Both the position numbers and the translations under genes were made by a program. Source: an uncultured delta proteobacterium (lineage in GTDB: Bacteria > Desulfobacterota > Desulfobacteria > Desulfobacterales > JAFDCJ01). Taken from it: a stretch of DNA of 64,000 nucleotides. Position 1 is the stretch's first letter, and each line of letters starts with the position of its first letter. The notes beneath the pieces are model-generated. The model ran no database searches and was not told the origin of the DNA. It saw only the letters and a program-made list of their open reading frames with translations. The stretch spans positions 64,001 through 128,000 of the forward strand of contig CAVYNY010000018.1 of assembly GCA_963769935.1 (NCBI GenBank). Reading direction: 5' to 3'. Shown piece after piece: positions 3,058-18,852 of this stretch.

Positions 3058-3066
3058 TTAACTCAT

Positions 3067-3468
3067 TTATATAGATGTCAGCACTTTTAAACCAAGGTGT
3101 TTTTCTATAGGATTGAAATCTCTATCGTTATGTAAAAGGACCATATCGTTTTCGATTGCAACTGATGCTATCATGCAATCTATGAAATTTCTTATCGAAA
3201 TTCCCTTGCGGCGCAGGGTTCTATAAATTTCCGCTGCGCTCAAAAAAACTGAATATGGCATCGGCAAAAAAACCATGGTATTGAAAAGTTCCTTTGTTTT
3301 TCGAAACTCATTTTTCTCCCGGACACCTTGAAGTACCTCCGTTAAAATAATACCGCAGATACATATATCTTCCCGGTCTTTTATTAAAAGTTCAAGAACT
3401 GTTACATGAGGCAGCTGTCTTCCGGCAAAAAAATCAATCCATACAGTTGTGTCAATCAATACCATCAT
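3067..3468 (-). CDS. vapC: VapC PIN-domain toxin
   Basis: VLIDTTVWIDFF, EVLQG, DCMIA, HNDRDF. Confidence 0.9.
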   Translation of the reverse strand: MMVLIDTTVWIDFFAGRQLPHVTVLELLIKDREDICICGIILTEVLQGVREKNEFRKTKELFNTMVFLPMPYSVFLSAAEIYRTLRRKGISIRNFIDCMIASVAIENDMVLLHNDRDFNPIEKHLGLKVLTSI

Positions 3469-3668
3469 CAGTTGCGACCCCTGCGCCATTCGGCAAGATC
3501 ACCTTCCCAATTAATTCTGCCTTTTAATTCAAGTATCTTAGTCTGAGACTCATGCCTCAATAATTCTCGCAAGGCATGATCAATCAGAGCCCTTTGGGTT
3601 TTTATGCCCGTGGTTTTCATGCATTTATCAACCAGTTTATCATCAAGTACAATGTTTGTCCTTTTCAT
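3468..3668 (-). CDS. vapB: VapB antitoxin
   Basis: MKRTNIVLDDKL...WEGDLAEWR; TGATG overlap with vapC. Confidence 0.85.
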   Translation of the reverse strand: MKRTNIVLDDKLVDKCMKTTGIKTQRALIDHALRELLRHESQTKILELKGRINWEGDLAEWRRGRN

Positions 3669-3848
3669 ATGGCTGCTCCTTTTTCCGTTTATATACACAA
3701 AATAACACAATTAAGGTGTATTATAAAGAAAAAAAATTGGGGATACCGCTGGCGGTCACTTGCGCCAGAGGGATTTCAATTATTACAAAACAGGCAGTTA
3801 GTTCTGTACTTATGATCGTGAATTTTAAGAAAAAATGCAAATCGGGGG

Positions 3849-3937
3849 AGATAACGACCTAAATCAGCGGGCGGGCAACTACCATTGCTAAAACGGCGCC
3901 GCACTTATTCCGCGTCCGCTTGATTTTTTTGTCAGGC
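3849..3937 (-). other. attC site (R'' mutated to GAC)
   Basis: Minus: GCCTGAC-aaaaa-AATCAAGC...GCTGATT-taggtc-GTTATCT with extrahelical base in L''. Confidence 0.75.
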
Positions 3938-3960
3938 GCTTTTGTTTCTTCATTCCATTA

Positions 3961-4398
3961 TTATGAAGCGGTTATCTTGTATTCGGTTGTGACCTCGGTG
4001 TTGTTCTTCACCATTTGCCACACAGGGCTGACTGATTCTTCAGCGAGTTGAATTGCTTTTTGAATGTCCACGTCCCGCGTATCCCTGGAAGTCAAAAGGA
4101 ATTCGAGAAGTATCTTTTCAAACTTGATTGGGGGCTGTTCTCGCCTTATACCCTTTGCATTTACTTTCAGGCCAGATATATTTTTCTCCATCTTTCTCAG
4201 TAAATATACAATTGCCGTACCGCTGCATCCAGCAAGACTCATAAGCAGTAATTCAAGTCCGTTATAGCCCTGACCGTCGCCTATTGGCGGTTTAAAGTCG
4301 AAGGCAATTGGTCGAGTCGGATTGGATTTGGAGATGCCGGTAAATTGAACTTTATCATTCGTCAGATTAACTGTAACTTGCTCGAATTGCTCTGCCAT
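3961..4398 (-). CDS. OsmC-family protein
   Basis: GYNGLELLLMSLAGCSG; second Cys position reads SVSPV. Confidence 0.85.
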   Translation of the reverse strand: MAEQFEQVTVNLTNDKVQFTGISKSNPTRPIAFDFKPPIGDGQGYNGLELLLMSLAGCSGTAIVYLLRKMEKNISGLKVNAKGIRREQPPIKFEKILLEFLLTSRDTRDVDIQKAIQLAEESVSPVWQMVKNNTEVTTEYKITAS

Positions 4399-4454
4399 AC
4401 TAGCCTCCTTGAATCTGATAATCTTCGTTTTCCTTCATTATATCAGTACGTTTT

Positions 4455-4545
4455 CCGGTCAGGGCAGGGGCCTTCCAGCCCCATTGCCCCCTGAGAACCC
4501 TGCGTGATAGTTTTCCCTCACAGAGCTCAAGCATTTCAAAGGACA
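4455..4545 (-). mobile_element. Group II intron 3' remnant (domains V and VI)
   Basis: Minus: GAGCTCTGTGAGGGAAAACTATCACGCAGGGTTC, a 34-nt DV with AGC triad (4495-4528), then DVI-like hairpin ending CTGACCGG. Confidence 0.8.
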
Positions 4546-4639
4546 CACTTATGGGGCGGCGCGACTGTTCACATCATTCCCATGTTATACGCGCTTTATC
4601 AAATGGAGCATTTTAAACTGGATAGCAGCGATGGTCCCC

Positions 4640-4906
4640 AAAATTTGAGCAGTATGATATCTGTTCAAGAGCCTGCGCATTACCGTGGCGATAGGGGCAA
4701 CACCTATCCTCAATAATAAGTGAAGGCGTGATTATTATAAACGTCCACGCAAAGCAGGGGGTTTTGCTGTCGGATAAGATACCGCCGAGTCGATCCCAAA
4801 AATCACCACGGTCGGGATTATCGAAAAAAAACTTTCTTCGATTAATCCCCCTCACAATTATATGGTGCAGCGCTCCGGGGGCTTCTATGCTGGCTTTTCG
4901 AGGCAT
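4640..4906 (-). pseudogene. RAYT/IS200-like HUH transposase N-terminal remnant (second subtype)
   Basis: MPRKASIEAPGALHHIIVRGINRR...CFAW then frameshifted NH..HLLLRIGVAPIATVMRRLL. Confidence 0.85.
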
Positions 4907-4973
4907 GTCAACCAGGTATCAAATAAATCCGAATATGGAAACCGTAAATCCGAGGAACGTCGCCGATACCCCG

Positions 4974-5042
4974 CACTCAATTCTGATTCCATAAATTTTA
5001 TCCTTTGAAGTAAAACCACTAAACCCCGAAGAGAACAGGGTG
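4974..5042 (-). repeat. Duplicate of ybaK leader and first codons (other copy 10504-10570)
   Basis: ATTCTGATTCCATAAATTTTATCCTTTGA..ACCACTAAACCCCGAAGAGA.CAGGGTG at both places; both start MESELS. Confidence 0.85.
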
Positions 5043-5335
5043 TCAAATCCTGTTCATTGATTAAAATGGCCTCATTAATTACAGATCAAGACGCGTCCCT
5101 CCATCCCGGATTTATATCGCCTTCATTTCCAATTCGCCAGGCGCCGAACATACGCCCACTTTGTTAACGTGCATCTTACGACCATATCAGGCCTTAATCA
5201 CTAATCAAGACCCATTTTCCCATACATACACAAAAAGGTTAAGGTAGTGCCAAAGACTTTTTGGAGACTCATAGTATCCTGAAATTATTAAATTTTTAGA
5301 AAACGACTGTTAAAGATCAGTTTAAGATTGACACT

Positions 5336-5370
5336 ATGACCAAATGTAATTACAGTGGGTACATATAATC
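5336..5370 (+). promoter_or_regulatory. Probable mazEF operator/promoter region
   Basis: TTGACA at 5328-5333 and palindromic TGTAATTACA followed by GTACAT upstream of mazE. Confidence 0.5.
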
Positions 5371-5395
5371 ATAATATAAACTAGGAGCTAATCCC

Positions 5396-5668
5396 ATGGA
5401 AGATCACGCAAGAGTGAGAGATGCAAAGCTGGTCCCAATTGGAAATTCAAAGGGTGTTCGTATACCCAAAGCGCTCCTCCAAAAATATGGCCTAAAAAAT
5501 TCCCTTCTAATTGAAGAAACAGGCAGAGGCCTGCTTCTTCGGAATAAAGAAGAAAGCAAGCTTTCTTGGGAGGAAACATACAAAGCTATGGCAAATGAAA
5601 AGGAACATTGGGACGATTTTGACACAACGCTTCTTGATGGCTTGGAGGATGAAAACTTTGAATATTAA
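5396..5668 (+). CDS. mazE: AbrB/MazE-family antitoxin
   Basis: KLVPIGNSKGVRIPKALL AbrB motif; AGGAG RBS. Confidence 0.85.
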   Translation: MEDHARVRDAKLVPIGNSKGVRIPKALLQKYGLKNSLLIEETGRGLLLRNKEESKLSWEETYKAMANEKEHWDDFDTTLLDGLEDENFEY

Positions 5669-5984
5669 AAGGTACGAGATATATTCCGCAGATCTCAACC
5701 CCACGATAGGAAGCGAAATAAAAAAGGTGCGCCCCCTAGTCATAATTAGCCAAGACGAAATGAATAAATATTTGGAAACAGTTGTTGTATGTCCTTTAAC
5801 CTCAAAATTGCATCCCCAATGGAGGACCAGAATCCAGATTAAATGCGCGAAAAAAAATGCTGAAATCGCTGTTGACCAGATTCGTACCATTAGCAAACAG
5901 AGATTAAAACATAAAATTGATCAGTTATCCACTAGCAAAGCCGCCCAACTTCGAAAACTCATAACTGATATGTACGGTGAATAA
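5658..5984 (+). CDS. mazF: MazF/PemK-family toxin
   Basis: KRYEIYSADLNPTIGSEIKKVRPLVIIS...VCPLTS...DQIRTISKQRL; TTG start after GGAGG. Confidence 0.9.
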   Translation: MNIKRYEIYSADLNPTIGSEIKKVRPLVIISQDEMNKYLETVVVCPLTSKLHPQWRTRIQIKCAKKNAEIAVDQIRTISKQRLKHKIDQLSTSKAAQLRKLITDMYGE

Positions 5985-6038
5985 ATGCTTTCTCCAAATC
6001 ATCTATTCCAATATTTGCTCTTTTGCTTCAGCATCATC

Positions 6039-6072
6039 GCACAACGCCCGGCGTGAGCAGTGCCGCCAATAT
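6039..6072 (-). other. attC right half (L'/R' only)
   Basis: Minus GCACTGCTCACG-ccgggc-GTTGTGC resembles right arm of 14344-14446; left arm absent. Confidence 0.55.
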
Positions 6073-6249
6073 CGAAAAAACTGAACATCGCGTCCTCGAC
6101 GGCAAGCGAATCCGTGGCGAGGGGTCGGCAAATCGTCGAGAGGCAAGGGTAGAAGCTTGTGGACGAAAATATTGAATAATCCGAAAATCCGAGGAACGTC
6201 CCGGTATACGTTAACTTAAGCCTTCTGCCCCTTATTTGATTGCTTTTTG

Positions 6250-6277
6250 CGTCATCCCGGCGAAGGCCGGAATCCAG
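6250..6277. repeat. REP-like palindrome
   Basis: CGTCATCCCGGCGAAGGCCGGAATCCAG, hairpin CCGGC-GAAG-GCCGG. Confidence 0.6.
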
Positions 6278-6402
6278 TCTTTTCAATCTTTCCCAGTCCC
6301 AGAGCTAAGCGAGAGATGATGTCGGCTAAAAAGTTTTATTCACTCATCACGACACGGCCCCATATTTACATGAAGGTTTCGAACCCTTTCTACTTGAATT
6401 CA

Positions 6403-7929
6403 TTAAGGTGCTGCCGGGCCTCCACCTCCTTGGGCGTTGCGCTGTGCAAGGAAAGCTGAAACTGTTTGTCTTCTACCACCAGGTCTGGCTATCACAAAGA
6501 CAGTACCACCCGCAACTCTTCGGCCAAATCTAAATTCGTGAAAAATTCTATATCCTTCTGCTTGACTCGTGAATTGAAATAACGTTCTACTTCCCACATT
6601 ATATTGACCCGTAAACCTGATGGTAGGATCATTAAAAAGATTCTGAAGGAGGGTAGCCTCTGCGTTTAATCCAGCGCGGTGAGCTCTATTGAAAATGGCA
6701 TCGGATATTACCGTTCCAATCCTCCTGGCATAGTTTCGAGTTTGGAAACGCTCTTCCAGAATATGCACAAAATTCAGTTGGAGACTAAGGTCATCGCAGG
6801 CAAGCAAATCTTCAATATCGACGTAACCCATATCAAAGTCATCGACGTCGACAGGTTCTAATGGTGTTCCTGGAGGATTTCCGGGCCTCGTTGATAGGCC
6901 TTGACTTGTTATCAGTCGCATTGGTACTGTTACGCCTCTATCTATGAATGCCCGCATTTGTCTGTCAAAATGGGTGAGGCTTGCCTCATCGTGCAGATCG
7001 TATGCCAAATTCTGTCCATCTAAGCGATAGGTTATTGGTCTAGGCTGAGGCGGTAAGTTATTTAGCCGATCAATCAGTTCCTGCACTCTGCCAAAACCTG
7101 AAGCTTCACCCGGGCCAGGCGGGCGCAATTCAACCCTGCGTTGAATATTTGGAGTACTTTGTTCCCCTCCATTCTGCTGTATAAAATGCGTCAACTCGTG
7201 AGCCAGTAAGCGTTTGCCATCGTTCGATTGAGTATCGTATCGTCCTGCACGAAAGTATATATTTCTCCCTTGCGTAAATGCTCTGGCATTCAGTGCTCGA
7301 CTTTTTTTGTCTGCCGAACTATCCGTATGAACCCTGACCTTCGTGAGGTCATAACCCATGCGCGGCTCGAAAAAATCGCGCGTAGTCGAGTTTAGTGGAT
7401 GCCCTGGGGAGGAAATTGCCTTCTCTGCAGAGCTGGCAGGCTTGCCGATATCATTTCCTTGCGCAGGCTTGGTCTGTATTTGTGTTTGTACGTCTTGTCG
7501 ATTCTGGCTTTTCGGGCGCCCTCCGCCACATGGGCATGCGCGTTGCAAATTAGGTTCGGACATGTGCATCACTTGGTCTGCAACACGGTCTGCTTGCAGC
7601 TCATACATATCTCCTGACGTACTGACCGTAAGTTTTGGTTGCGTCTTCCTTTGTGGTGGGGCGGGATGAATAGGTATCTGGCTAAAGTCATGAACAAACC
7701 GAGCTGCAGCTGTGGCGCTGGATTCAACTTCATGGCTTTGGGAGTCAGCTCGCAGCAAGCTCTGCACTGCTTGACTGCCGGTGATGCGCTGCATTTGTAA
7801 GATAGCGCGCACGTCACGATGGTGTTTAGCAAGAGTCGTGCTGGCTTTTGTTGATTTTGACATTAAGGTCTGATGAATTGCCTTTGATCTTTGTGCGAAA
7901 GTGCGCATGCTTATTATCCTTTCGTTCAA
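6403..7929 (-). CDS. DUF4157 (eCIS-core domain) protein with uncharacterised C-terminal domain; start uncertain
   Basis: VRVHTDSSA...ARAFTQGRNIYF...LLAHELTHFIQQ; upstream QPKLTVSTSGDMYELQADRVADQVM. Confidence 0.85.
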   Translation of the reverse strand: MNERIISMRTFAQRSKAIHQTLMSKSTKASTTLAKHHRDVRAILQMQRITGSQAVQSLLRADSQSHEVESSATAAARFVHDFSQIPIHPAPPQRKTQPKLTVSTSGDMYELQADRVADQVMHMSEPNLQRACPCGGGRPKSQNRQDVQTQIQTKPAQGNDIGKPASSAEKAISSPGHPLNSTTRDFFEPRMGYDLTKVRVHTDSSADKKSRALNARAFTQGRNIYFRAGRYDTQSNDGKRLLAHELTHFIQQNGGEQSTPNIQRRVELRPPGPGEASGFGRVQELIDRLNNLPPQPRPITYRLDGQNLAYDLHDEASLTHFDRQMRAFIDRGVTVPMRLITSQGLSTRPGNPPGTPLEPVDVDDFDMGYVDIEDLLACDDLSLQLNFVHILEERFQTRNYARRIGTVISDAIFNRAHRAGLNAEATLLQNLFNDPTIRFTGQYNVGSRTLFQFTSQAEGYRIFHEFRFGRRVAGGTVFVIARPGGRRQTVSAFLAQRNAQGGGGPAAP

Positions 7930-8186
7930 TGCGCATCAGCTGCAGGCCGCATTTGTGCATGAATCTATCGCCATCTAAGGGCTCACTCAAAAATAACTTC
8001 ACATTTTATACGCCGATGCATTTCTTACGGCTGCGTTGCGAAAGCTCGGAATATCCAGATATTCCTGCGTTTTCGCGCCTTGCCGGAAGAGCGCCTCAAC
8101 ACCTAAAACTGTGAATTAATTTTTTCTTAAACCCTAAGGGTTTGCCCCGCACTTCCATTTCGTCAGCTGCATGCGACTTGTTGAGG
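7923..8186 (-). other. attC site interrupted by MITE, R' degenerate
   Basis: Minus CCTCAAC-aagtc-GCATGCAGCTGAC pairs with GCAGCTGATGCG at 7931-7943. Confidence 0.65.
7979..8134. mobile_element. 156-bp MITE with imperfect TIRs and TAA target duplication
   Basis: GGGCTCACTCAAAAATAACTTCACATTTTA versus reverse complement GGGTTTAAGAAAAAATTAATTCACAGTTTTA; TAA on both sides. Confidence 0.75.
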
Positions 8187-8466
8187 ACCCGGCAAGCGCG
8201 ATAATTTCCTGCGGAACGCTTCGCTAAAAATCGCTGCAACCTGACGAGTGAGCAGAAGGCCACCTCCCGATGGCAAATTTTGCTATGAGACCATTAGCCA
8301 TAGGTTAAACATTAACTTTATGGTTTAAAGAGGTGCCCAACGAAAATATACGCTGGAATTGATCTGCATTCAAATAATAATTTTATGGGCGTCCCCATTA
8401 TCCACGCGTGGTCAGTCCCAAGGATTGACCCCAATCTCCCCTGCTGACGCCCCGCCTGGTGCTTTT

Positions 8467-8736
8467 TTACCTTTGCCTTTTTACCATTGCGAGAGCTTCT
8501 TCATAGGCGTGCAACCTTTCCTCCCATTCATGCAGTTGCCGGTGGTCATTGCGCCAGCGCTCCATTTCACGTTTTCCGTCCGGTGATAGCCCTCCGCCTG
8601 AAACACTCAAGAACTGCTCCGTGGTCATCCCATATTGGTGCTCTCTTTTCAGCAAATCTGCCTTCAGACGCTTGATGACGCTACGGCAGATATTGGTCTC
8701 CCTGCCCATGGAGATCTCGTATTCGTCGTAATACAT
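8467..8736 (-). CDS. Small hypothetical protein
   Basis: 89 aa ORF with AGGAG RBS, helical composition. Confidence 0.65.
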   Translation of the reverse strand: MYYDEYEISMGRETNICRSVIKRLKADLLKREHQYGMTTEQFLSVSGGGLSPDGKREMERWRNDHRQLHEWEERLHAYEEALAMVKRQR

Positions 8737-8847
8737 GAAAACTCCTTCTGATGCGGATTGGGGGTTAAACCTTGAATTGTGAATTTCAAATCCAAGAGGT
8801 TAAGGACATTGGCCAAATTCACAATTCAAGGTATGACCTCAGTCTTA

Positions 8848-9043
8848 CAGTATGCTCAAGCCAAAACGCTTCTTTCCTTCAAAAAGCCACCAGAGTCGCC
8901 GGCGCCGATCTCTGCCAAACATCAAAAGGAATTCCTTCTTATGGCAACGGTGAGTTATTTACCCCGTTAAACCTTTTCTTACTTTGTTTAACTGGGGTGT
9001 GCCAGACATACCCCGGTACGTAATGCCTGCTTGTCCTTGGTAT
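8848..9043 (-). pseudogene. RAYT remnant with 40-bp hairpin insert
   Basis: (ATA)PRTSRHYVPGYVWH-[40 bp]-ITHRCHKKEFLLMFGRDRRRRLWWLFEGKKRFGLSIL*. Confidence 0.85.
8959..8998 (-). repeat. 40-bp hairpin insert, copy 2
   Basis: Minus ACCCCAGTTAAACAAAGTAAGAAAAGGTTTAACGGGGTAA. Confidence 0.9.
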
Positions 9044-9190
9044 GGAGCATATCCATAGAAGCCGATTTTCATGGTCAAAATCATCATTCTAAGGTCGATC
9101 GACAACAGCCGCCACTTTACACCTCTTATATCATGATCACAGGTACTTCCGGCGGTCAGACCCGCCCCGGGTGGAAAATTCGTCCGCTCT

Positions 9191-9550
9191 CTACAGAAAA
9201 TAGGGTTTGATGAAAAAGAGCATTGTTGAGAAAATAAAAATGCAGGCATTTAGAATCGCGCACAGAGCGGCCTCCCGCAGGAAAGGCCGGAGCTTCCCAT
9301 TATTGGGATTCCGGTTTATGCCCTTGAAGGCTTTTCGAAGGCACATGAGGTAATTGGCAAAAAGGCAGGTGCCAATAATCAATAAAGTCTTGACCAATAA
9401 ACTACCTCCCAGCTCATTGCCCGGAATAATAAGGATTTTACCTAAAGCAAGACCGAAAAAGACATTGGCCAGGATCGTTAAAATCGGAAATTTGTTGGAC
9501 GACAGGGTTCGTTTAAGGGAGTGAATAATTTCTTGCATGCCATGCCCCAT
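9191..9550 (-). CDS. Hypothetical membrane protein
   Basis: Three hydrophobic segments. Confidence 0.55.
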   Translation of the reverse strand: MGHGMQEIIHSLKRTLSSNKFPILTILANVFFGLALGKILIIPGNELGGSLLVKTLLIIGTCLFANYLMCLRKAFKGINRNPNNGKLRPFLREAALCAILNACIFIFSTMLFFIKPYFL

Positions 9551-9984
9551 AAATATCAGAATTTGGAAACCGAACCAAAGCTAAAACGGTATATAAGTCC
9601 ATTGGAATATTCAAAATCTGAACCGTAAGGCACCTCTAAAAAAATATTAAAAATCCGAAGCCTTTGGATTTGTTTCTCAACAACGCCTCAAAGCCTCAAC
9701 AAGTATTGCTGTAGTCCCTTTTCGGCTGATAAGCAAAAGCTTATTTTATGTCGATATACAGTTTTGGCGACCGCTCATTTCCCCTGTTTTTTTAATGACC
9801 ATCTTGGCGCCGATTCCGAAAGTAAAAAGAATAAAGGAGTATATCAAAGCTTGAATAGTGTATAAAGCAGTTGAAATTTTGTTTCTTATTCACAATTCAA
9901 GCTTTGCCCCCCTTTTTTCACATCTGCTATTTCAGCGGAGCATTTTTCGCATTTCATGATAATTAATACTTTCAGAGGTGTAGC

Positions 9985-10039
9985 CTTGGCAAAAGGTGCG
10001 GAGGCATTTTGCCGTCGCCCTTAATGCCGTTGTTTTATA
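9985..10039 (-). other. Degenerate attC (R' lost)
   Basis: Minus ATAAAAC-aacgg-CATTAAGGGCGACGG...CCGCACCTTTTGCC, no GTT follows. Confidence 0.5.
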
Positions 10040-10521
10040 TCTTCCGATAAATAGATCCATTTTCCTTTGGTAAGAGGCTCCAGATCGGAAGGTTTTAGCT
10101 GAAAAACGGCAAAAGGAGTGCCTGCCGCTGCCCATATCGTTTCATATTTTTTCAAATCCCTATCCAACAAGGTTTCCAAAGGTTCAATATGCCCTACAGG
10201 CGGAACACCACCGATTGCATATCCGACTCTAGCCTTTACAAAATTTCCATCCGCTTTTCCAATATTTAAACCTAACGACTTTTGGATTTTTTTCACATCA
10301 ACTCGATTTGAGCCGGATGCAATGACAAGAATAGGTCTGTCCGTTTTCTCCTCCCTGAAAACAAGCGATTTAGCAATCTGGGCCACCGTACATCCTATGC
10401 TGTCAGCAGCCTCCTGAGCGGTCCTCGCTGAACCAGGCAGTTCCTTGACATCAAATGAGAATCCCATTTCAGAAAGGAAATCCTGTACACGCTTCGCACT
10501 ATTGCTTAATTCTGATTCCAT
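10021..10521 (-). CDS. YbaK/EbsC-family aminoacyl-tRNA deacylase
   Basis: TAQEAA..IAKSLVF, GYAIGGVPPVGH, WAAAGTP. Confidence 0.9.
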   Translation of the reverse strand: MESELSNSAKRVQDFLSEMGFSFDVKELPGSARTAQEAADSIGCTVAQIAKSLVFREEKTDRPILVIASGSNRVDVKKIQKSLGLNIGKADGNFVKARVGYAIGGVPPVGHIEPLETLLDRDLKKYETIWAAAGTPFAVFQLKPSDLEPLTKGKWIYLSEDIKQRH

Positions 10522-10569
10522 AAATTTTATCCTTTGAGTATAACCACTAAACCCCGAAGAGAGCAGGGT

Positions 10570-10671
10570 GCATATTCCACAGTGAGCAGCGGCCCAATTT
10601 CAGACTGAACCTGCACGGCCTTTACGTTAAGCCGCGATTTTCACGCCGTCTGCTCCACCGGCATGTTTCAT
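10570..10671 (-). other. attC site, R' degenerate; homolog of attC 14344-14446
   Basis: Shared GAGCAGACGGCGTGAA.ATCGCG..CGTAAAGGCCGTGCA..GGGCCGCTGCTCAC. Confidence 0.7.
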
Positions 10672-11153
10672 GCGTCGCCTTTCTTCCAATACTCGCCCAT
10701 CAGCTCGCTGGACCAGGCGGGTTGGTCGACAGGACTTCTGGGAAGGAACTCCGACATGACAGGTTTCAGATCTACGACCGGTGTGCCATCGATGGCGTCC
10801 AATTCTTCCACCTGTATCTCCCGACCATTTACCGAAATAATCCGACAAATTGTACTGCCGAGTCGATTCGGGCGATTCTTGCCCCTTTGTGCGAATATCC
10901 CAACCTTTGGCCAATCGACGTTGTTCCTCGGGCGGCGCGCGCCAGAGACGATCTTCGAAGGCTCGACTTGATCGAAGACGAACAGAACCTCGACGTGGGA
11001 AAATTCCTGCAACCCTTGCAGCGCCTCGGCGTCGAAGCTATCGACAAGCCGAATCAAGGACCGGGTCTTGCCCCAGTAATCGTCCTTCGCCTCCTTGCGA
11101 GAGGTTCGAACGTATCCAATTGGCTCTATCTCAAAAGCCACCGCATACTCCAT
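10668..11153 (-). CDS. TrmO/TsaA (YaeB)-like SAM-binding beta-barrel protein
   Basis: IEPIGYV, GLQEFSHV, GIFAQR..NRPNRLG, LDAIDGTPVVDLKP. Confidence 0.85.
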   Translation of the reverse strand: MEYAVAFEIEPIGYVRTSRKEAKDDYWGKTRSLIRLVDSFDAEALQGLQEFSHVEVLFVFDQVEPSKIVSGARRPRNNVDWPKVGIFAQRGKNRPNRLGSTICRIISVNGREIQVEELDAIDGTPVVDLKPVMSEFLPRSPVDQPAWSSELMGEYWKKGDA

Positions 11154-11168
11154 GCTTTTCTTAGGAAT

Positions 11169-11253
11169 TTACCCTGTTAAACCTTTTCTTACTTTGTTTA
11201 ACTGGGGTATGCCATATCTGACCCAGTATGTTATGCCTTTTCGCTCTTGCCAT
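11169..11253 (-). pseudogene. RAYT 5' remnant ending at 40-bp hairpin (copy 3, 11169-11208)
   Basis: MARAKRHNILGQIWH-ACCCCAGTTAAACAAAGTAAGAAAAGGTTTAACAGGGTAA then unrelated sequence. Confidence 0.85.
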
Positions 11254-11420
11254 TGCTATATCGCTGTTTTTTGCTCCAAAAAGCTCAATATACCCCTGCT
11301 TTTGGGGGTACAAGTAAGCTCATTCTCTATAATTATAGCCTGTTAGCCTGGCCCGTCCCCAAATCTGGAAATGAGCAGGGCCGTAAGTGAATCGATATCA
11401 AGCGAGAGACGTGTCCCAGC

Positions 11421-12335
11421 TCAAAGGCCGGCAACGAATTGTCTAATCGTCTGTTTGACTGATCCGAGGTCTCCCCGATCCTCAATCGAGCCGTAGATGT
11501 CGCCACCAAGGTCTGCAGGCATCCTCGCACCCTTCTCACGAATCACAAGCACCTGATCTTTCCCCTTGGCTGCCGCGAAGTACCCCGCCTCGAACACAAC
11601 GTTGTCGCGAGGAGCAGCTTCGCGGCCGGGCCCTGGCAGGCCAAGGTCGTCGTCCTTGGTAAAGAGAAAGATCCCGAGCGAGGTGCGAGATCTGGCCTCA
11701 TCGATCTCCTCTAGAATCGTCCTTCCTGGCCTGAAGTCGCGCTGCCAATCCAGTACTGTCGCCCCCACCTCTGACTCGAGGAAGCTTCGAAGTTCGCCGG
11801 CGGTCGCCGATGCCTGACTGCAGTATCCAAAAAAGACATCCTTGCGGGCCCTCAATTGGTTCCCCCAGTGAGTCTTGAACACAACCTCAAACTGAGGAGT
11901 GTCGAGCCATGACTTGTCCGCATCATCGGGAAAGACGCCCACATAAGGACCAAAGGACATGTCAAACACCACCCTTCGCATAAGACGCTGTTGTGCCAGT
12001 ACCAAGAGAGGCAAGCCCAGGGTGCGTGCTAAGGCACCCTCATAATAACAATATTCAGTCGGTAAGAAGACCGGTCCGTCTGAGGCATGCAGCTCCCACC
12101 GAGGAAGCCCGATGATGGCCGCACCTTGACAATGTTGAGCGACTTCATGGGCAGCGGAAGCACTCCAAGCCTGTGGAGCAGACATCGAGTTACGACCAGT
12201 TGGATCGGTGAAGATCTCTGGTATGTATCCGAGCTGCTCGATGCGCTCAACCACACCCCACTTCAGATCATTTTCGTTATCGGTTAGCCAGGGATCGGCA
12301 GGCATACTGACGTAGATTCTTCGATTGACACCCAT
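11421..12335 (-). CDS. Two-domain protein: N-terminal NDT/DUF4062-like fold plus C-terminal CAP12/Pycsar-type TIR domain
   Basis: IYVSMP...TEYCYYEGALARTLGLPLLVL; VFFGY...GIFLFTKDD...PRDNVVFEAGYF...MPADLGG. Confidence 0.8.
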   Translation of the reverse strand: MGVNRRIYVSMPADPWLTDNENDLKWGVVERIEQLGYIPEIFTDPTGRNSMSAPQAWSASAAHEVAQHCQGAAIIGLPRWELHASDGPVFLPTEYCYYEGALARTLGLPLLVLAQQRLMRRVVFDMSFGPYVGVFPDDADKSWLDTPQFEVVFKTHWGNQLRARKDVFFGYCSQASATAGELRSFLESEVGATVLDWQRDFRPGRTILEEIDEARSRTSLGIFLFTKDDDLGLPGPGREAAPRDNVVFEAGYFAAAKGKDQVLVIREKGARMPADLGGDIYGSIEDRGDLGSVKQTIRQFVAGL

Positions 12336-12399
12336 TTCTACCTCCGTCGTCGTGATTTAGCGGGGCGCGGGTAAGCAGCACACTTTCGCGAGGAATAAG

Positions 12400-12570
12400 G
12401 GGCCGGATCGATTTTGTAATAGTGCGCTACTTTGTCAATGAGCGCCGGCAGTCTGACAGCAGTCACCTGCAGGCGATATCTTTCCTTCAACTGTTCATCG
12501 GCTTGCTTTAACACCCGTTGCATAAATTCTGACGAACCCAGCATCTATTCTGGCTTATGCGAGGCATAAC
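12400..12570 (-). pseudogene. RAYT C-terminal remnant
   Basis: LGSSEFMQRVLKQADEQLKERYRLQ...LIDKVAHYYKID resembles C-terminal extension of long RAYTs. Confidence 0.6.
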
Positions 12571-12631
12571 GCCTATTTATCAGATCTCTATAATAATGCA
12601 AATATAGAAATAGAACGGATGTTCCCATTAT

Positions 12632-12736
12632 CCCCCCAAGTGGGACTTTCACCTTCGGCGATCACCCACTGGGCAACATTATCAAATTTCACCTCCTTGG
12701 GAGGTTCCCAACGATTCGGGCTATGCTGGGCACGAC
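12632..12736 (-). mobile_element. Probable group II intron 5' remnant (domain I start)
   Basis: Minus GTCGTGCCCAGCATAGCCCGAATC...GGGTGATCGCCGAAGGTGAAAGTCCCAC; preceded by GCCGAAC-cacgc-AGTG (attC R'' and start of L''). Confidence 0.6.
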
Positions 12737-12753
12737 CACTGCGTGGTTCGGCC

Positions 12754-13356
12754 CTATCGTTCAGCAATTATACAGTCATCAATGTGCGAACCAAGATTGT
12801 CAGATAACCGCTGGGTAATCTTTCGCATAGATGCTTCCGGTCGATCGAAACCATAAACCGTTAATGGAAAATTTAGCGGCTCCTGAATTTTCCATATCTC
12901 ATCGTGCTTATTAGGCGAAAATAACTTGGCTGGATTACCAACGGCAATCCAGCCTATCGGCACTACAACTCCGGGTTCGAGGTACGATTTTAAATGAACA
13001 ACGGCATTTATTCGAACCTGAGATCCTTTGCCCAAACGTGCGCTATGAAAAATTGCGGCTCCGGTTGCAATGAAGACTTCGTCTTCGACAGCGCATCCAA
13101 CCACATGTGCATTAGGACCGATTAGGCAATAATTTCCGATGGACGCTGAATGATCGGGATTGCTCCTTACAACCGCGTTTTCGAAAATAATGCATTGTTC
13201 ACCAATAACTATTTTGCCGCCCTCTGCAATAATCGAAGCTCCATGCATTATCCTGCAATTCGGACCGATGGTAACATCACCACAAAGTGTTGCGGTAGGT
13301 GCAACATAGGCTGATGGATGAACTTGCGGTTGTTTACCGTTATGTGAAAGAAACAC
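12754..13356 (-). CDS. Gamma-carbonic anhydrase-like left-handed beta-helix protein
   Basis: PQVHPSAYVAPTATLCGDVTIG hexapeptide repeats, GNPAK; GGAGG RBS, GTG start. Confidence 0.85.
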   Translation of the reverse strand: MFLSHNGKQPQVHPSAYVAPTATLCGDVTIGPNCRIMHGASIIAEGGKIVIGEQCIIFENAVVRSNPDHSASIGNYCLIGPNAHVVGCAVEDEVFIATGAAIFHSARLGKGSQVRINAVVHLKSYLEPGVVVPIGWIAVGNPAKLFSPNKHDEIWKIQEPLNFPLTVYGFDRPEASMRKITQRLSDNLGSHIDDCIIAER

Positions 13357-13374
13357 ACCTACCTCCTATTTTGG

Positions 13375-13437
13375 ACTGAACGTGCTGCTCAGGGGCAGCG
13401 TGGTTTTTACGCTGACACCTGCAGCAGATTGTTGGCC
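13375..13437 (-). other. attC site (63 bp)
   Basis: GGCCAAC-aatct-GCTGCAGG...CCTGAGC-agcac-GTTCAGT. Confidence 0.9.
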
Positions 13438-13946
13438 ATTCTCTTTTTTCCAATTTCAATTTTAAGAATGACTCCATTATGGTAATGAAGTCTGGCAAAA
13501 ACTCCCTCACGAAGGGCACCTCCGTGAGAATTGGTTTGTTTGTATCCAGGTGTTACATGAAAATAATTAATTTCAAATTCTTGACCTCCGACAGTAATAA
13601 CGTCACCAGCTGAATGCCCGCCAAAAGGCTGTTCATGAGTAACGTGAACGACACCCTCCGCAATTTGGCATTGCCCGTTACGAAAGACATCGAGCAATTG
13701 TTCAATGTCGGATGTGCCTATCCGCCATAGGGGTATATGCAAAAGTAACCACATAACACCCCAAAAGGTCATAAATACAGGCCCCCAGAGCTTCTTTGGA
13801 AATAGGCCTCGCGTCTTTTTGCGAAGTATTAGGCCAGTAATTCCAGCAATCAAAATGACGATGCCAATAACCAGTCGGAATATGACATCTGCCCGGATTC
13901 CATTTGTTCCAGCGGTTATTTCAAATATAGTGGTGAATTCGTTCAT
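13407..13946 (-). CDS. Hypothetical 2-TM membrane protein (cassette gene)
   Basis: Start MNEF just after R'; two TM segments; ORF ends inside next attC. Confidence 0.7.
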   Translation of the reverse strand: MNEFTTIFEITAGTNGIRADVIFRLVIGIVILIAGITGLILRKKTRGLFPKKLWGPVFMTFWGVMWLLLHIPLWRIGTSDIEQLLDVFRNGQCQIAEGVVHVTHEQPFGGHSAGDVITVGGQEFEINYFHVTPGYKQTNSHGGALREGVFARLHYHNGVILKIEIGKKRMANNLLQVSA

Positions 13947-13956
13947 TATTAACTGG

Positions 13957-14085
13957 CTCCAACGTGGAAGTGAGGGGCCGGGCAGGGATTGCCTAAACTC
14001 TAAATAATGACCACAACCTGCTGAAAAACAATAATTGCAAAAATGGCACGGCTTTGCCCGGCCCCTCTCCACTGATTTGTTCTGC
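13957..14085 (-). other. attC site (129 bp)
   Basis: GCAGAAC-aaatc-AGTGGAGAGGGGCCGGGCA...TGCCCGGCCCCTCACT-tccac-GTTGGAG. Confidence 0.9.
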
Positions 14086-14088
14086 ATC

Positions 14089-14319
14089 TCAGTGAGTCTT
14101 AATATGGTTGTTAAATTTTTCCGCCAACTCCAAAATTGAAAGTTGAAGGCCTGCTATCTTTTGAATTGCCCAAGCTTGAAAAATTTCATCCTTACGATTC
14201 TTGTCATTAGGATGCTCTTCAATATACGATTGATAATGCGCATGGAATTCATAGATTAGGTCCTCAGTTTTTGCATCAACTCTTTTTAAACTTTCCGCTA
14301 ATTTATCAGCACTTGACAT
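14089..14319 (-). CDS. Small hypothetical cassette protein
   Basis: MSSADKLAE... 76 aa, GGGAG RBS, bounded by two attC. Confidence 0.7.
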   Translation of the reverse strand: MSSADKLAESLKRVDAKTEDLIYEFHAHYQSYIEEHPNDKNRKDEIFQAWAIQKIAGLQLSILELAEKFNNHIKTH

Positions 14320-14343
14320 GTGTTCTCCCTTTAAATGTTGGTA

Positions 14344-14446
14344 GCAGAACCCGGGCGTGAGCAGCGGCCCACATGATATTCGAGTTTGCACGGCCTTTAC
14401 GAAAAAACGCGATCTTCACGCCGTCTGCTCAACGCATTTGTTCTGC
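14344..14446 (-). other. attC site (103 bp)
   Basis: GCAGAAC-aaatg-CGTTGAGCAG...CTGCTCACG-cccgg-GTTCTGC. Confidence 0.9.
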
Positions 14447-14462
14447 AATTCCAAGCCCAGAG

Positions 14463-14699
14463 CTACAGTTTGTCATGCTTTTCAGGTTCAACATCAGGAA
14501 CTTTATCCAGTACAGCTTGATACTTTTTCCGTGATGCCCTCCTGGCTCTTTTGTTCAGATATTCCTCAGTCAGCAATGCCGTCATTTTTTCCGCAGTCGC
14601 TGAAGCAATGAACTGGTTTATAGAAATTCCCTCCCGTTGCGCCAGTTGTCGAATTTGTTCATGTAAAGAATTCGGTATTCGTAGGCTTAATGTACTCAT
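14463..14699 (-). CDS. RHH (HicB-like) antitoxin
   Basis: MSTLSLRIPNSLHEQIRQLAQREGISINQFI. Confidence 0.85.
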   Translation of the reverse strand: MSTLSLRIPNSLHEQIRQLAQREGISINQFIASATAEKMTALLTEEYLNKRARRASRKKYQAVLDKVPDVEPEKHDKL

Positions 14700-15112
14700 T
14701 TTATAACTCCTATCTCTGAAAGAAATTCTCTTGGATCGAGAACCCTTAGGCCGAATCGTTCAATACCTTTAAAATCACGCTTATTGTAGGTGACAATTGC
14801 ATCGCATCCCGCTGCAACAGCAACCTCCAGCACATGATCATCAGACGGATCCGGCAAAAAAGGGCGCCAGAGAAAAAATATTTCTTGATGATGGCCAATT
14901 TTACATAGAAAATCTACGAAATTTCCTATGTCCTGTGATGTGATAGCAGAGGATTCCAGTCGCTTTAACGCATCCTCATACTCCAAAACCAAAGGGACTG
15001 AAATGGCGATCGAAAACTCATCGCTTGGTAGAACCGATACGAGCTTAAAGGATGCACCACGGCGGGATCTTAACGCTGAAACTAAAACATTCGTATCAAT
15101 CACAATTTTCAT
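14696..15112 (-). CDS. PIN-family toxin
   Basis: IVIDTNVLVSAL, EYE, DPSDDHVLEVA, VTYNKRDF. Confidence 0.9.
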   Translation of the reverse strand: MKIVIDTNVLVSALRSRRGASFKLVSVLPSDEFSIAISVPLVLEYEDALKRLESSAITSQDIGNFVDFLCKIGHHQEIFFLWRPFLPDPSDDHVLEVAVAAGCDAIVTYNKRDFKGIERFGLRVLDPREFLSEIGVIK

Positions 15113-15166
15113 GTGGTATTATATATCATACCAAAACGGGGTATTCAAGTGTAAAGTGACGTTTCT

Positions 15167-15270
15167 GCAGAACGTCTCGGGATGAGCTGCAGGCCACAGA
15201 GCTACGATTACCTCTGGACTTTACGCAAACCGCCTGCTTATTCCTGTCAGCTCAATCCCGCTTGTTAGGG
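15167..15270 (-). other. attC site (104 bp)
   Basis: CCCTAAC-aagcg-GGATTGAGCTGAC...GCAGCTCATCC-cgagac-GTTCTGC. Confidence 0.9.
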
Positions 15271-15298
15271 CGCACTTGCTTGTTGAGAATCTAGTGAT

Positions 15299-16159
15299 CT
15301 ACACAATTGCTAGGGGGTTAACTGGGCTCCCTACTCCTGAGGTTAGCGGTAAGGGCGTGACCACGAATAAGAATTCGTAAACCCGATCCGTAGCCAGTTG
15401 CGCCAATTTTAAGTTCTCTAATAGGTAAATACCCAAATCTCTTATAACGACAGGGTGAAACGAAAGTTTGTCGGGCGGTATAGTCCCCATAACTTCTACG
15501 CCGTGGTTATCGGCGCCCACCGCGACAATATCGTGTTGCTGTAGCCAGCTTGGGGTAGACATATCAAGCCCCGGCTCGCCGCTGTTGAACCGCTCCCGAT
15601 CTCGTTCAAAGAGTTTCATCCAACCCGTGTGAATCAGCAAAATATCGCCAGCGTGAATCTCAACATTTTGACTGGCCGCGCAGGCGTCCAGATCAGCGGC
15701 GGAAATAGGTTCTCCCACATCAAGATGCTCAACCCCTTTCCAACCGGCAATATCCAACAGTACGCCACGACCGACGATAGCCGGCACGTTTTCGATAGCG
15801 TTGCGGGTTCCACCGCCATCCGAACTGATATGGTCGGCCACGTCAAAGCCGTTGTAAAGTTGGTTATGGTACCAAACGTGACACAGCGCATCAATGTGAG
15901 TACCTGAGTGAGAGTGCATCATCACAATGTCGTCCGCCCAACCAAACGTTGGGTTGTTGCCATAGCGCGTAGTCTTCCAAGTTTTATGGCGACTTGGCCA
16001 CTGAGGGCCTTCGGCTTCCAAGGGCATTGCCAGGCTATAAACTTTGCCGGTTCTAACCAAACCGGCTGCTTGTTTTATCAAGTCTGGGGTAATGAGATTT
16101 AAAGTGCCTTGTTCATCTTCAGGACCCCATCGACCCCAATTGCTTAATTGATTTGTCAT
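15299..16159 (-). CDS. Cyclase-family (kynurenine formamidase-like) metal hydrolase
   Basis: NWGRWGPEDEQGTLN, HSGTHIDALCH, GDILLIHTG, GSPVNP. Confidence 0.9.
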   Translation of the reverse strand: MTNQLSNWGRWGPEDEQGTLNLITPDLIKQAAGLVRTGKVYSLAMPLEAEGPQWPSRHKTWKTTRYGNNPTFGWADDIVMMHSHSGTHIDALCHVWYHNQLYNGFDVADHISSDGGGTRNAIENVPAIVGRGVLLDIAGWKGVEHLDVGEPISAADLDACAASQNVEIHAGDILLIHTGWMKLFERDRERFNSGEPGLDMSTPSWLQQHDIVAVGADNHGVEVMGTIPPDKLSFHPVVIRDLGIYLLENLKLAQLATDRVYEFLFVVTPLPLTSGVGSPVNPLAIV

Positions 16160-16250
16160 GGCATATGCTCTTTGAAAATAGATTTTGGAAAGAAATTATA
16201 TGAATACCCTTTAATATCAAGATTGCACAGGATAGATGATCATTTTAGCG

Positions 16251-16373
16251 CCCTAACGCCCACCATCAATGGGGAGCAGGGTTTACGGACTTCGCAAATG
16301 AGAGTTCAACACTAAAATACGCCAAAACCAAGGTGGCCCGCCCCTGCGAATCCAGTGAATGGTGATGTTAGCC
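16251..16373 (-). other. attC site (123 bp)
   Basis: GGCTAAC-atcac-CATTCACT...GCAGGG..CCCTGC...ATTGATG-gtgggc-GTTAGGG. Confidence 0.85.
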
Positions 16374-16696
16374 TTCAAATTTTCCTTTTTTCAGCTCGAT
16401 ATCCTTGCATTTTATTACTCTATAGCCAGCATTCGTATCCATTTTGTAAGTTGTGGCTTCGTATTCATCCGCAGCTTTATGGATATCAAAATCCAAAATA
16501 GTTATTTGGCCAGCAAACGGTCCTTCATGAATTCGGTACTGATAAATATCTTTGAACTCAATACAGTATATTTCATACTTATGTGCATCCCAATCAATGG
16601 GGTAATCAACTTCGAAAATGAGTTTACTATCCAATGGGATTTCAATTATTCTTTTGATTACGAATCATGCCAATTTATTTCTGATATATCAGTCAT
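16368..16696 (-). pseudogene. AT-rich hypothetical cassette gene with 1-nt frameshift near codon 12
   Basis: MTDISEINWHDS stops at once; shifted frame continues VIKRIIEIPLDSKLIFEVDYP... Confidence 0.6.
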
Positions 16697-16708
16697 GATA
16701 ATTCTACC

Positions 16709-16745
16709 GGGCTAACCAGTGATTGAGTGGTTTCTGTTTATCATC
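16709..16745 (-). other. R' core without pairing arm (attI-like or half attC)
   Basis: Minus ...ACCACTCAATCACTG-GTTAGCC; GTTAGCC complements GGCTAAC closing the same cassette. Confidence 0.5.
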
Positions 16746-17336
16746 TTGCAATTAAATAATCCTGCCGGTTATGCAATATATAAAAAGCTGCAATATGACG
16801 GTTTTCAAACTGTTTAACATGCAACATTTCATGTTAGACGGATCCCGCTTAAATACACATTAAATCCTGTCTGGTGCTTTTGGTTAGCGTTTCCACTTTT
16901 CACTGGATGCCAAAAAATAACGGATAAAGATGAGATCATGCTCATTGTTTGTATTTGATACCGGCGGCTCATAGATTCGCCCAAAAGAAATCCCGCTCTC
17001 TTTTTGAGAAACGGGATTTTTTATTGCGCTGCATCATTTATTCTCCTTTGTCGGGTCAACGAAGGAAGGCAGATGTTAGCTCGAATTATAAGTTTTTTGT
17101 TGATTCAATATATTATATTGTACATCAAATCAAGCTCCGTTCGAGTATCGAGGCACAAAAACCGTACGAAAAGCTCCGGACGAGATGACGCCATCGAATC
17201 GAAAAAGATCAAAAAAATCAACATTGGCAATAAAATCCGGGATTGTTTTCGGAATGGCGGTGGAGCACTCCGCATGGGTAGCGCGGCAGGTACCTGCTCA
17301 ATATCAATTAATTGCCGCGGCCAGACCCCCGACCAC

Positions 17337-17699
17337 TTATTCCTTTAACCACCTGATGGCTTTATCAATATCGGAGAACACGGTGACCGTCACCCCCCGG
17401 TTGCGCGCAGCATTTTCGAAGAATTTGTCGGGTAAGATCTGATCTCTCCGTCCCAGCATGGCGATCTTGACAGAGTAAGGGATTGTCACCGCCCCATACT
17501 GGGCAATGTCGAACCGATTCATCACCGACATGTCACCTGCCATCGGCCTGCAATCAAACAGAACCTTCGCGCATTTTTCTCTCGTGCACGCCGCCACCAT
17601 TTCATCCACACAGCGCTTGGCAGCTTCAGGGCTGAACCGCCCCGAAAATGTGATGTGGATATAACCCTCGGCCTTTACGATATCGACAAAGTCAGTCAT
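17337..17699 (-). CDS. STAS/SEC14-like small protein
   Basis: YIHITFSG, KVLFDCR, KIAML, FFENAARNRG, FSDIDKAIRWL. Confidence 0.7.
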   Translation of the reverse strand: MTDFVDIVKAEGYIHITFSGRFSPEAAKRCVDEMVAACTREKCAKVLFDCRPMAGDMSVMNRFDIAQYGAVTIPYSVKIAMLGRRDQILPDKFFENAARNRGVTVTVFSDIDKAIRWLKE

Positions 17700-17714
17700 G
17701 ATTATTCGCTCGTA

Positions 17715-17786
17715 GTCCAACGAAAAATGTTCAGCCGAAAAAAGAAGCGCCAGCTGCTTTTTGTCGGTTGGAACGGAATGTTAAGT
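17715..17786 (-). other. attC site (72 bp)
   Basis: ACTTAAC-attcc-GTTCCAACCGACAAAAAGCAGC...GCTTCTTTTTTCGGCTGAAC-atttttc-GTTGGAC. Confidence 0.85.
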
Positions 17787-18098
17787 TTCATTATCGTCAG
17801 GTTTTGTCACCATTGCAATCGCCGCAAAAAATACCGCTGAAATTAATACTAAAATAGAACCCCCAATCAGAACAAAAAGAAGAGACCGCGCGTATAATTC
17901 GCCAATTATCGCCTTATCTAAAACTTCTTCGAGACCGGACAAAATAAAGAACAGAACGCCATACAATACTACGGGAAGAAAGGAATATCCGGCAAAAAGG
18001 CAGATGGCTTTGGGCTTCGTCACTTTCCCCCGCTTCAGGCGCTTAAATTGCCAGAAAAAAACACTTACGACGATAATAATTAGAAGCAAAAAAACCAT
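17781..18098 (-). CDS. Hypothetical 3-TM membrane protein (cassette gene)
   Basis: Stop codon TAA lies in R'' of attC. Confidence 0.7.
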   Translation of the reverse strand: MVFLLLIIIVVSVFFWQFKRLKRGKVTKPKAICLFAGYSFLPVVLYGVLFFILSGLEEVLDKAIIGELYARSLLFVLIGGSILVLISAVFFAAIAMVTKPDDNET

Positions 18099-18166
18099 AC
18101 TTAGACAATCACCTTATCCATATCCCTGTCATCGTGGAATTGAGGTGCGTGGAAATGCGTTAGCAT

Positions 18167-18472
18167 TTACACGTCATGCTCAAAGGACTTCCCCCTTGGT
18201 TTTTCAATAAGTCTTCCAGTTACGAACCGATGCAGAATGCTCGATATTAGCGTTTGATAAGGCATACCATCTTCAACAGCCATAGTTTGTAGCTCTTCAA
18301 GTACCATTGACGAAATCCGTATGTTTACCCGTTTGTCTTTTTTTAAAGTCTGACGAGCGTATCTTCTATGTTTTTCAATTTCTTGCTCAAGATTTTTAAC
18401 GGACTTCCATTCTCCTCTTTCATAGCTGTCAAGAATTTCCTTTTCTTCTTTATTAAGTTTTAATTTAGCCAT
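18167..18472 (-). CDS. CopG/BrnA-like antitoxin
   Basis: KKDKRVNIRISS..GMPYQTLISSILH. Confidence 0.85.
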   Translation of the reverse strand: MAKLKLNKEEKEILDSYERGEWKSVKNLEQEIEKHRRYARQTLKKDKRVNIRISSMVLEELQTMAVEDGMPYQTLISSILHRFVTGRLIEKPRGKSFEHDV

Positions 18473-18473
18473 T

Positions 18474-18746: not shown

Positions 18747-18852
18747 AAGCAATAATTAAGCACGATGTGTGCCATATGTCAACACAATGATTGTGGGGTG
18801 AGGACGAAAGGGCACATGAATTGAATCCACCAAATCCCTTTTAAAATATGAA

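Follow-up and report, generated by a model that had tools for sequence, protein, structure and literature searches.

An attI-headed cassette array with no intact integrase in an uncultured member of the Desulfobacterales: a likely relic integron that was likely still served in trans

Clusters of attC sites lacking an integron integrase (CALINs) are defined by at least two attC within 4 kb and no integrase gene (intI) nearby; they carry toxin-antitoxin and unknown cassettes, several arrays can occur per genome (PMC4889954; the works cited here were available in part, and what is said of them applies to those parts), and they are more numerous than complete integrons. Recognisable intI pseudogenes were found near only 15 of 279 CALINs, and a search for attI was impossible outside classes 1-3 (PMC4889954). 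The origin of CALINs is open in print, because at most of them an intI pseudogene cannot be recognised and the attI of most classes is not known. Mobilization in trans of arrays with an inactivated integrase is accepted in principle (10.1101/2025.06.18.660453, PMC8618304, PMC8876359), and the newest cassette of an array is the one adjoining attI (PMC3146285). Here we describe an integron cassette array in a stretch of 64,000 nucleotides (the window, G000:C18:64001-128000) from the assembly GCA_963769935.1 of an uncultured delta proteobacterium of the Desulfobacterales (G000; 7.99 Mb in 41 contigs, numbered C, 96.7% complete and 5.4% contaminated). The array has an attI of its own and no intact intI, and we consider it probable that it is the relic of a complete integron, which likely continued to gain or lose cassettes in trans.

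The attC array is genuine. The whole 64 kb were searched, unfiltered, with a covariance model (CM R1) built on 22 seed attC, all from outside the window: 11 from integrons of relatives with intact intI and 11 from other G000 arrays, excluding the C9 copy of site 13957. Eight of the 13 matches up to E 5 (14344, 15167, 17715, 3849, 13957, 13375, 16251 and the stem at 10582) had E-values of 6e-9 to 0.0022, all on the + (bottom) strand, and the remaining five were at E 1.8 or worse. All seven sites that an earlier note on this DNA, made from its letters alone, had called well-formed are among the eight, and their minus orientation holds. The note had named as fatal a covariance model missing the sites and bottom strands that do not fold; what was obtained were seven matches on the bottom strand. 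Both R'' and R' boxes (RYYYAAC ... GTTRRRY) surround an imperfect palindrome in six of the seven. The site at 3849, where R'' has GAC in place of AAC, is less well formed than claimed; its DNA fold is weak (z -0.93) and it lies 6.6 kb from the nearest other match. Fold z-scores were below -2.8 in four of the seven and weak in 3849, 15167 and 16251, but minimum free energy z-scores by themselves overlook genuine attC. The stem of the model shows covariation: 85% of the cells were paired, a value reached in none of 500 shuffles and in no slid control (at most 48%), though the seed sites had been chosen by a pairing scanner, which tilts this control in favor of the model. An independent anatomy scanner recovered 3 sites over 3001-18000, against 0-1 per shuffle (20 shuffles). 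The CM alignments on the + strand agree with the two extrahelical bases, about 6 bp apart, expected of a folded bottom strand, and the scanner reported bulges A/T, A/T, C/A, and C/CC; a first MAFFT alignment of the window sites was uninformative. Seven of the CM matches fall within 10582-17786 with gaps of 2.7 kb or less, which agrees with the spacing of a CALIN.

Further remnants accompany these sites. Among the five attC described as partial in the earlier note, two are half sites with the R' side only (6039 and 7923) and two lack R' (9985 and 10570; all by eye), while the fifth, at 16709, is no attC at all (see below). Two degenerate attC-like hairpins had gone unmentioned, one seen by eye at ~17250-17314 and another, with a fold z of -3.43, at 18125-18200. 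The segment 12706-12765 (fold z -2.65) was considered as another overlooked attC and rejected, being mostly the 5' end of a group II intron. The four R'/R'' pairs quoted in the note as cassette boundaries are letter-exact, and the gene given as 76 aa has that length. Five intact cassettes adjoin attI and damage increases with distance from it; the division of the region into an intact part (13.4-16.7 kb) and an eroded one (3-13 kb) is borne out.

The site at 16709 is an attI. It gave no CM R1 match and does not fold (z -0.28), and a DNA search with 16700-17270 matched the region directly upstream of a broken long-type intI on C16. The motif lies 163 nt from the intI start in G000:C16, 131 nt in L083 and 134 nt in L096; behind the L083 motif there is an intact IntI of 441 aa (TIGR02249, 373 bits against a cut-off of 265), and the C35 copy has an intI stub behind it. 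A motif profile found six copies in G000 (contigs C18, C11, C16, C28, C35, and C7), conserved outward from the crossover and unrelated on the cassette side. The window core is identical to those of C11 and G022 at 30/32 and 29/32 positions, respectively, and the cassette side at only 15/60 and 28/60. A contig of the marsh metagenome X7, a run that belongs to a different study than the best-matching run, contains the cyclase gene region (15703-16257, identical except at 3 of 555 letters) and then 30 letters, of which 29 agree with 16717-16746 (by eye). This is the cyclase cassette joined straight to attI, with exactly the 459-nt first cassette absent, and its attI letters are closer to the window variant than to those of C11 or C16. 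Two further X7 contigs have homologues of the STAS-like gene ahead of related attI sequence. The assignment follows because the motif precedes intI starts, homology stops at G|TT and the X7 contig joins a cassette to the motif; like an attI, it stands at the head of the array, is conserved up to the crossover and, in intact members, lies upstream of a divergent intI.

The same motif is scattered over other genomes. In an order-wide sample there were 11 matches in 8 of 200 other genomes, two of them preceding a full-length intI, which in one case contains an internal stop. When GTDB was scanned for the exact pattern, 21 loci were obtained, in part the same DNA as these matches. On their intI side we found two full-length genes, one gene cut at a contig end, three 5' stubs (tblastn) and none detected in 15, although in three of these 15 less than 1.2 kb of sequence is present there and in one a decayed start can be made out by eye. 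Seven of the 21 have attC within 2.5 kb on the cassette side, all in the expected orientation; at one of the seven the scanner also matched the opposite strand on the intI side. Named public records with the motif are mostly Desulfobacterales or deltaproteobacterial metagenome-assembled genomes, which by itself makes a host among the Desulfobacterota likely. It is also present in L100, L106, L111, L117, L119, and L120, labelled as Gammaproteobacteria, Planctomycetia or an archaeal bin, which suggests wide horizontal spread or binning errors. A second attI type, unlike this family, is found beside the short-type intI genes of the genus (L039:11640-11720, L036:6400-6450).

As the earlier note had stated, no integrase gene is detectable in the window: neither tblastn, with 11 intact IntI as queries, nor a profile search gave a match over C18:50001-128000, which takes in 14 kb further left. 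What stands behind attI is likely the decayed start of a long-type intI, to judge from two sister copies. In this region C11 and G022:C122 align with the window at ~73%, and the C11 and G022 stubs match the start of the C16 intI over 30-40 codons (0/1000 shuffles each; tblastn E 1e-6 for G022). The corresponding segment of the window is identical to each of the two at 81/128 positions (63%). All three run from the stub into the same non-coding block with a terminator-like hairpin and therefore share one deletion junction. As the hairpin block is conserved along with the attI core, selection has not been limited to attI. A 13-bp consensus stem is present in 10 copies, with covariation at one pair only, and Rfam gave no RNA family in 16.7-17.3 kb. 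The block comprises a purine-rich leader, a short unconserved open reading frame (ORF) start and the hairpin, and similar blocks occur without attI in several genomes (L069-L073, L075, L076, L078, L080). This repeated element is possibly the end or the leader of a small RNA. Thus the array has beside it a putative stub in place of the intact intI of a complete integron.

G000 as a whole is rich in attC, with at least 48 in 16 clusters, 10 of them with two sites or more (CM and scanner, 150 of 1982 CM candidates scored), although some of the single sites may be false. A search of the genome for intI, proposed in the earlier note, turned up broken copies only: four traces (C13, C16, C17, and C20), each without a large part of the gene, which are therefore not simple assembly frameshifts. 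Full-length, stop-free intI are present in five of 22 genomes of the same genus, one of them heading a classical array (G013:C39). Cassette 4 of the window has a second copy on C9, identical at 383 of 387 positions with all four differences in attC, and the flanks on each side agree at only 17/60, so that homology ends at both crossovers. The two copies are ~1% apart and the stub is 37% apart from its sisters, which implies that one of the cassettes recombined after the death of the local intI, in either direction. Together with the X7 allele this duplicate supports an integrase acting in trans, and to judge from these sequences cassettes likely moved through an integrase encoded elsewhere. 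The C16 intI, which is of the cognate type, is the best candidate in this genome; the donor was most likely that copy or an IntI on foreign DNA.

The sequence of events would then be as follows. The local intI would have been lost through an old deletion that spared a 5' stub, since decayed, and a long-type IntI, most likely the now broken C16 copy or one brought on foreign DNA, would have inserted cassettes at attI in trans, so that the newest ones adjoin it. A group II intron, a miniature inverted-repeat transposable element (MITE) and pieces of TIRtrons would have fragmented the distal part, which was presumably under little selection. Toxin-antitoxin cassettes have a stabilizing role in arrays and would likely slow the loss of this one.

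Several results weigh against this account. There is no intact intI in the assembly, where TIGR02249 gives nothing over its cut-off, and the window stub compared directly with intI is not significant (169, 365, and 152 of 1000 shuffles reached its score). The X7 contig reaches only 34 letters beyond the crossover, and it may represent another locus, possibly with an intact intI. A read-archive comparison of six runs (assembled contigs only) gave no crossover joints or circles; contigs of the best-matching run do span attC 14344 and 16251, but that run may be the source sample. No sigma-70 cassette promoter was found in 16716-17340, where a promoter scan gave one site, inside a cassette, against a shuffle mean of 2.0 (chance level). 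Finally, this attI does not account for the cassettes at 17.25-18.75 kb, which stand beyond the relic. Some of these points would also fit an attI that is real and an array that has been static since the local intI died, with the cassette 4 pair and the X7 allele going back to earlier events, to other loci or to a mixture of strains in the assembly. An assembly without intact intI, its contamination, the single short X7 contig end and the missing circles are what one would expect from such a frozen relic, and the trans signal may come from a mixed assembly or from an X7 locus that has an intI itself. Against it stand the contrast between 4 differences in 387 for cassette 4 (all in attC) and 47 in 128 for the stub, the end of homology at both cassette 4 crossovers and the affinity of the X7 attI to the window variant; we therefore regard a static array as rather improbable.

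Less probable still is the reading implied in the earlier note, that the cassettes never had a platform of their own, being inserted at an attG site or split from another integron. The absence of intI from the window would agree with such a de novo CALIN, as would the synteny break at the right flank, where the dehydrogenase gene has other neighbors in relatives, and the stretch at 17.25-18.75 kb may have formed in this way; for 12.7-16.7 kb the idea is largely refuted by a cognate attI heading five intact cassettes in the classical orientation. The least likely alternative, which we hardly credit, is that 16709 is after all a degenerate attC of a non-coding cassette: an R'-like box at its start and weak R''-like letters ~60 nt away are outweighed by the missing CM match and fold, the one-sided conservation at the crossover and the position before intI start codons. 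The reading of the locus as a relic served in trans is thus retained. A bolder extension of it, possible although we would not bet on it, is that attI and the non-coding module lost intI once, were copied to new loci and have been kept across species under selection as non-autonomous platforms, served in trans by rare long-type IntI. The common stub-to-hairpin junction in the window, G000:C11 and G022:C122 is in favor of it, as are the conservation of the attI core (91-94%) against that of the stub (63%) and the full-length intI at only two of the 21 GTDB loci. Co-oriented TIRtrons may act as the vehicle of such platforms or as their eroder. If this were true, many CALINs would be live attI-headed arrays and not debris.

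The features of the region are listed in Table 1. In run X1 there is one extra base at 16661, an assembly error or a real frameshift, that would lengthen the ORF of cassette 1, which is probably longer than annotated. Contigs of runs X7 and X12, which belong to two studies, carry another attC body attached to the cyclase gene at the R'' box (15262), which suggests an attC swap on one cassette gene. The eCIS-core-domain protein (508 aa, C-terminal part unannotated) starts directly after a half attC, so that its gene is apparently a cassette gene. The TIR-domain gene stands alone, with no adjoining cyclase partner, and is a candidate anti-phage effector. A 5'-truncated membrane-protein gene (2854-3057), before an M20 amidohydrolase gene, marks the left border of the island, and the dehydrogenase gene at the right flank is separated from its usual neighbors, which sit on C10. 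No empty-site allele was found among 11 right-flank and 5 left-flank orthologue loci, which have other neighbors and no attC within ~1.5 kb.

Table 1. Positions of the integron features and neighboring elements in the window (strand as read on the contig; a dot marks features without strand).
Feature	Positions	Strand	Remarks
vapBC toxin-antitoxin pair, distal end	3067..3710	-	
OsmC-like gene (3961-4398) with attC 3849-3937	3849..4398	-	R'' mutated
Group II intron 3' end, domains V-VI	4458..4530	-	RF00029 38.2 bits, E 2e-4, under gathering score 40
TIRYT (Y1/RAYT-like transposase) N-terminal fragment with decayed left terminal repeat	4543..4970	-	tblastn E 3e-25
mazEF pair (5396-5984) with half attC 6039-6068	5396..6203	+	cut by TIRYT C-terminal piece 6069-6203
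eCIS-core-domain gene (6403-7929) with half attC at 7923	6403..8140	-	cut by MITE 7964-8140 (79 genomic copies)
Further TIRYT piece	8848..8958	-	
Further TIRYT piece	1205..1300	+	
YbaK/tRNA-edit gene (10021-10521) with degenerate attC ~9975-10036	9960..10521	-	5' end duplicated at 4976-5042
TrmO-like gene (10668-11153) with attC stem 10582-10658	10582..11153	-	attC without R'
TIR-domain gene, CAP12/Pycsar-type TIR	11421..12335	-	PF10137 E 1e-23; PADLOC TIR matches; TIRtron end ~11342-11360 (terminal inverted repeat motif)
Group II intron 5' end	12637..12740	-	86% identical to 5' end of reverse transcriptase-bearing intron, C10:566.5-568.8 kb
Cassette 6, hexapeptide-repeat (gamma carbonic anhydrase-like) gene	12754..13380	-	attC reduced to R'' box 12759-12765
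Cassette 5, 179-aa predicted membrane protein	13381..13962	-	attC 13375-13437; boundary pair matches only partly
Cassette 4, 76-aa unknown gene	13963..14349	-	attC 13957-14085; duplicate at G000:C9:371174-371560
Cassette 3, PIN toxin (PF13470) and RHH/HicB-like antitoxin	14350..15172	-	attC 14344-14446
Cassette 2, putative cyclase PF04199 (15299-16159)	15173..16256	-	attC 15167-15270
Cassette 1, unknown protein (ORF 16368-16634)	16257..16715	-	attC 16251-16373; exact boundaries; CM E 0.0022; absent in X7 contig
attI core	16714..16745	-	crossover G|TT at 16716|16715, top (minus) strand
Distal attI and probable former intI promoter region	16746..16852	.	aligns with C16 intI-upstream region
Likely decayed 5' stub of long-type intI, ~40 codons	16853..16980	+	rest deleted; identified via C11 and G022 stubs
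Conserved non-coding block with terminator-like hairpin	16981..17060	.	69/80 (C11) and 72/80 (G022) identical
Second co-oriented cassette stretch beyond intI relic	17250..18752	-	
STAS/SpoIIAA-like gene	17337..17720	-	
attC	17715..17786	-	
105-aa gene	17781..18098	-	
Degenerate hairpin	~18125..18200	-	
brnTA pair	18167..18752	-	

Mobile elements have left their mark on the distal part. The two group II intron ends enclose most of it and may be the ends of one interrupted intron (by eye). Both are on the cassette strand, opposite to what is expected of group IIC-attC introns. Complete TIRtrons, with a Y1/HUH gene between GGGGWSAS terminal inverted repeats, are present at other loci of this genome (NF047646 match at E 3e-17, short of the cut-off), and the window contains fragments only. 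Of the 61 TIRYT pieces counted over G000, 28 are no more than 10 kb from an attC, in zones that make up 4.9% of the genome; 26 of these 28 point the same way as the cassettes, and the two exceptions are inside the window. In twelve relatives 13 of 120 TIRYT pieces are close to an attC that was detected (such zones make up at most 1.7% of the DNA), 12 of them co-oriented, compared with 1 of 57 DDE matches. Two MITE-like repeats were not enriched near attC in G000 (7/79 and 1/14). Against a link between TIRtrons and arrays, DDE matches in G000 lie within 10 kb of attC in 4 of 9 cases (6 of 9 with a weaker site at C10:489 kb) and IS110 matches in 2 of 5 (both by eye), and the TIRYT pieces are not independent events. 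The co-orientation may also have a replication-strand cause: 22 of 33 TIRtron pieces close to arrays, and 14 of 28 away from them, agree with the inferred leading strand, the skew in the assembly being weak and patchy. That TIRtrons target attC was considered and found unsupported, the ends listed being mostly in genes or spacers with few adjoining attC. TIRtrons with several types of ends, in part with right ends duplicated in tandem, accumulate co-oriented in arrays, for example at C9:360-371, C15:122-145, and C11:165-203 kb; the DDE copies near G000 arrays are all opposite to them (by eye). Identical attC at G000:C10:489259 and C15:139967, with near-identical DDE and IS110 matches nearby, point to shared cassettes or a duplicated segment.

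Much of what is seen here has been described before, namely CALINs, the loss of intI, mobilization in trans, attG insertion, intron fragments in CALINs and TIRtrons, and a plain integron array would be ordinary. Our literature search, with most subscription journals, figures and supplements outside its reach, found no description of this attI family, of orphan attI-headed CALINs or of TIRtrons in integrons; the attI alignments of PMC3146285 and 10.1101/2022.02.06.479319 are figures of this kind and may include the family. The locus indicates that a CALIN can be an attI-headed relic with an intI erased below detection, and that such an attI likely still takes cassettes. With an attI family defined together with its cognate intact IntI, the site and its service in trans become open to direct tests, and members of the family can be sought at other CALINs.

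The label given by the earlier note, a CALIN recombinable in trans, fits the formal definition (PMC4889954) and the sequence evidence for activity in trans, but this is no bare attC cluster, having its own attI and a likely intI stub: formally a CALIN, historically it is a relic integron. The loss of intI is mechanism (iii) of PMC4889954, with the difference from the CALINs treated there that attI is identified and intI has decayed beyond detection. The sedentary integrons of Xanthomonas also keep attI and array with an integrase inactivated by stops, frameshifts or large deletions (10.1101/2025.06.18.660453, PMC8618304), and class 2 integrons with truncated intI2 retain both in the same manner (PMC8876359). 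The Xanthomonas arrays, however, are stabilized at one fixed locus, whereas here six attI copies of one family are spread over six contigs and cassette traffic likely continued. Insertion at attG, with single attC sites lacking integrase (SALINs), would explain small dispersed clusters made by an IntI encoded elsewhere (10.1101/2022.09.11.507474), but the main array starts at a conserved attI and not at a genomic GWT site. Group II intron fragments in CALINs are likewise truncated, some of them co-oriented with the cassettes and beside toxin-antitoxin cassettes (PMC7923331); those of the window differ in orientation from IIC-attC introns. Finally, the TIRtrons resemble subclass 2.1 of TnpA-Y1, with a Y1 transposase carrying a C-terminal extension and GGGG-W-S-A-S terminal inverted repeats (PMC3733652, 10.1101/279083); the available parts of these works draw no link to integrons (the word occurs 0 times in that of 10.1101/279083), whereas in the present genome TIRtrons are enriched near the cassette arrays and co-oriented with them.

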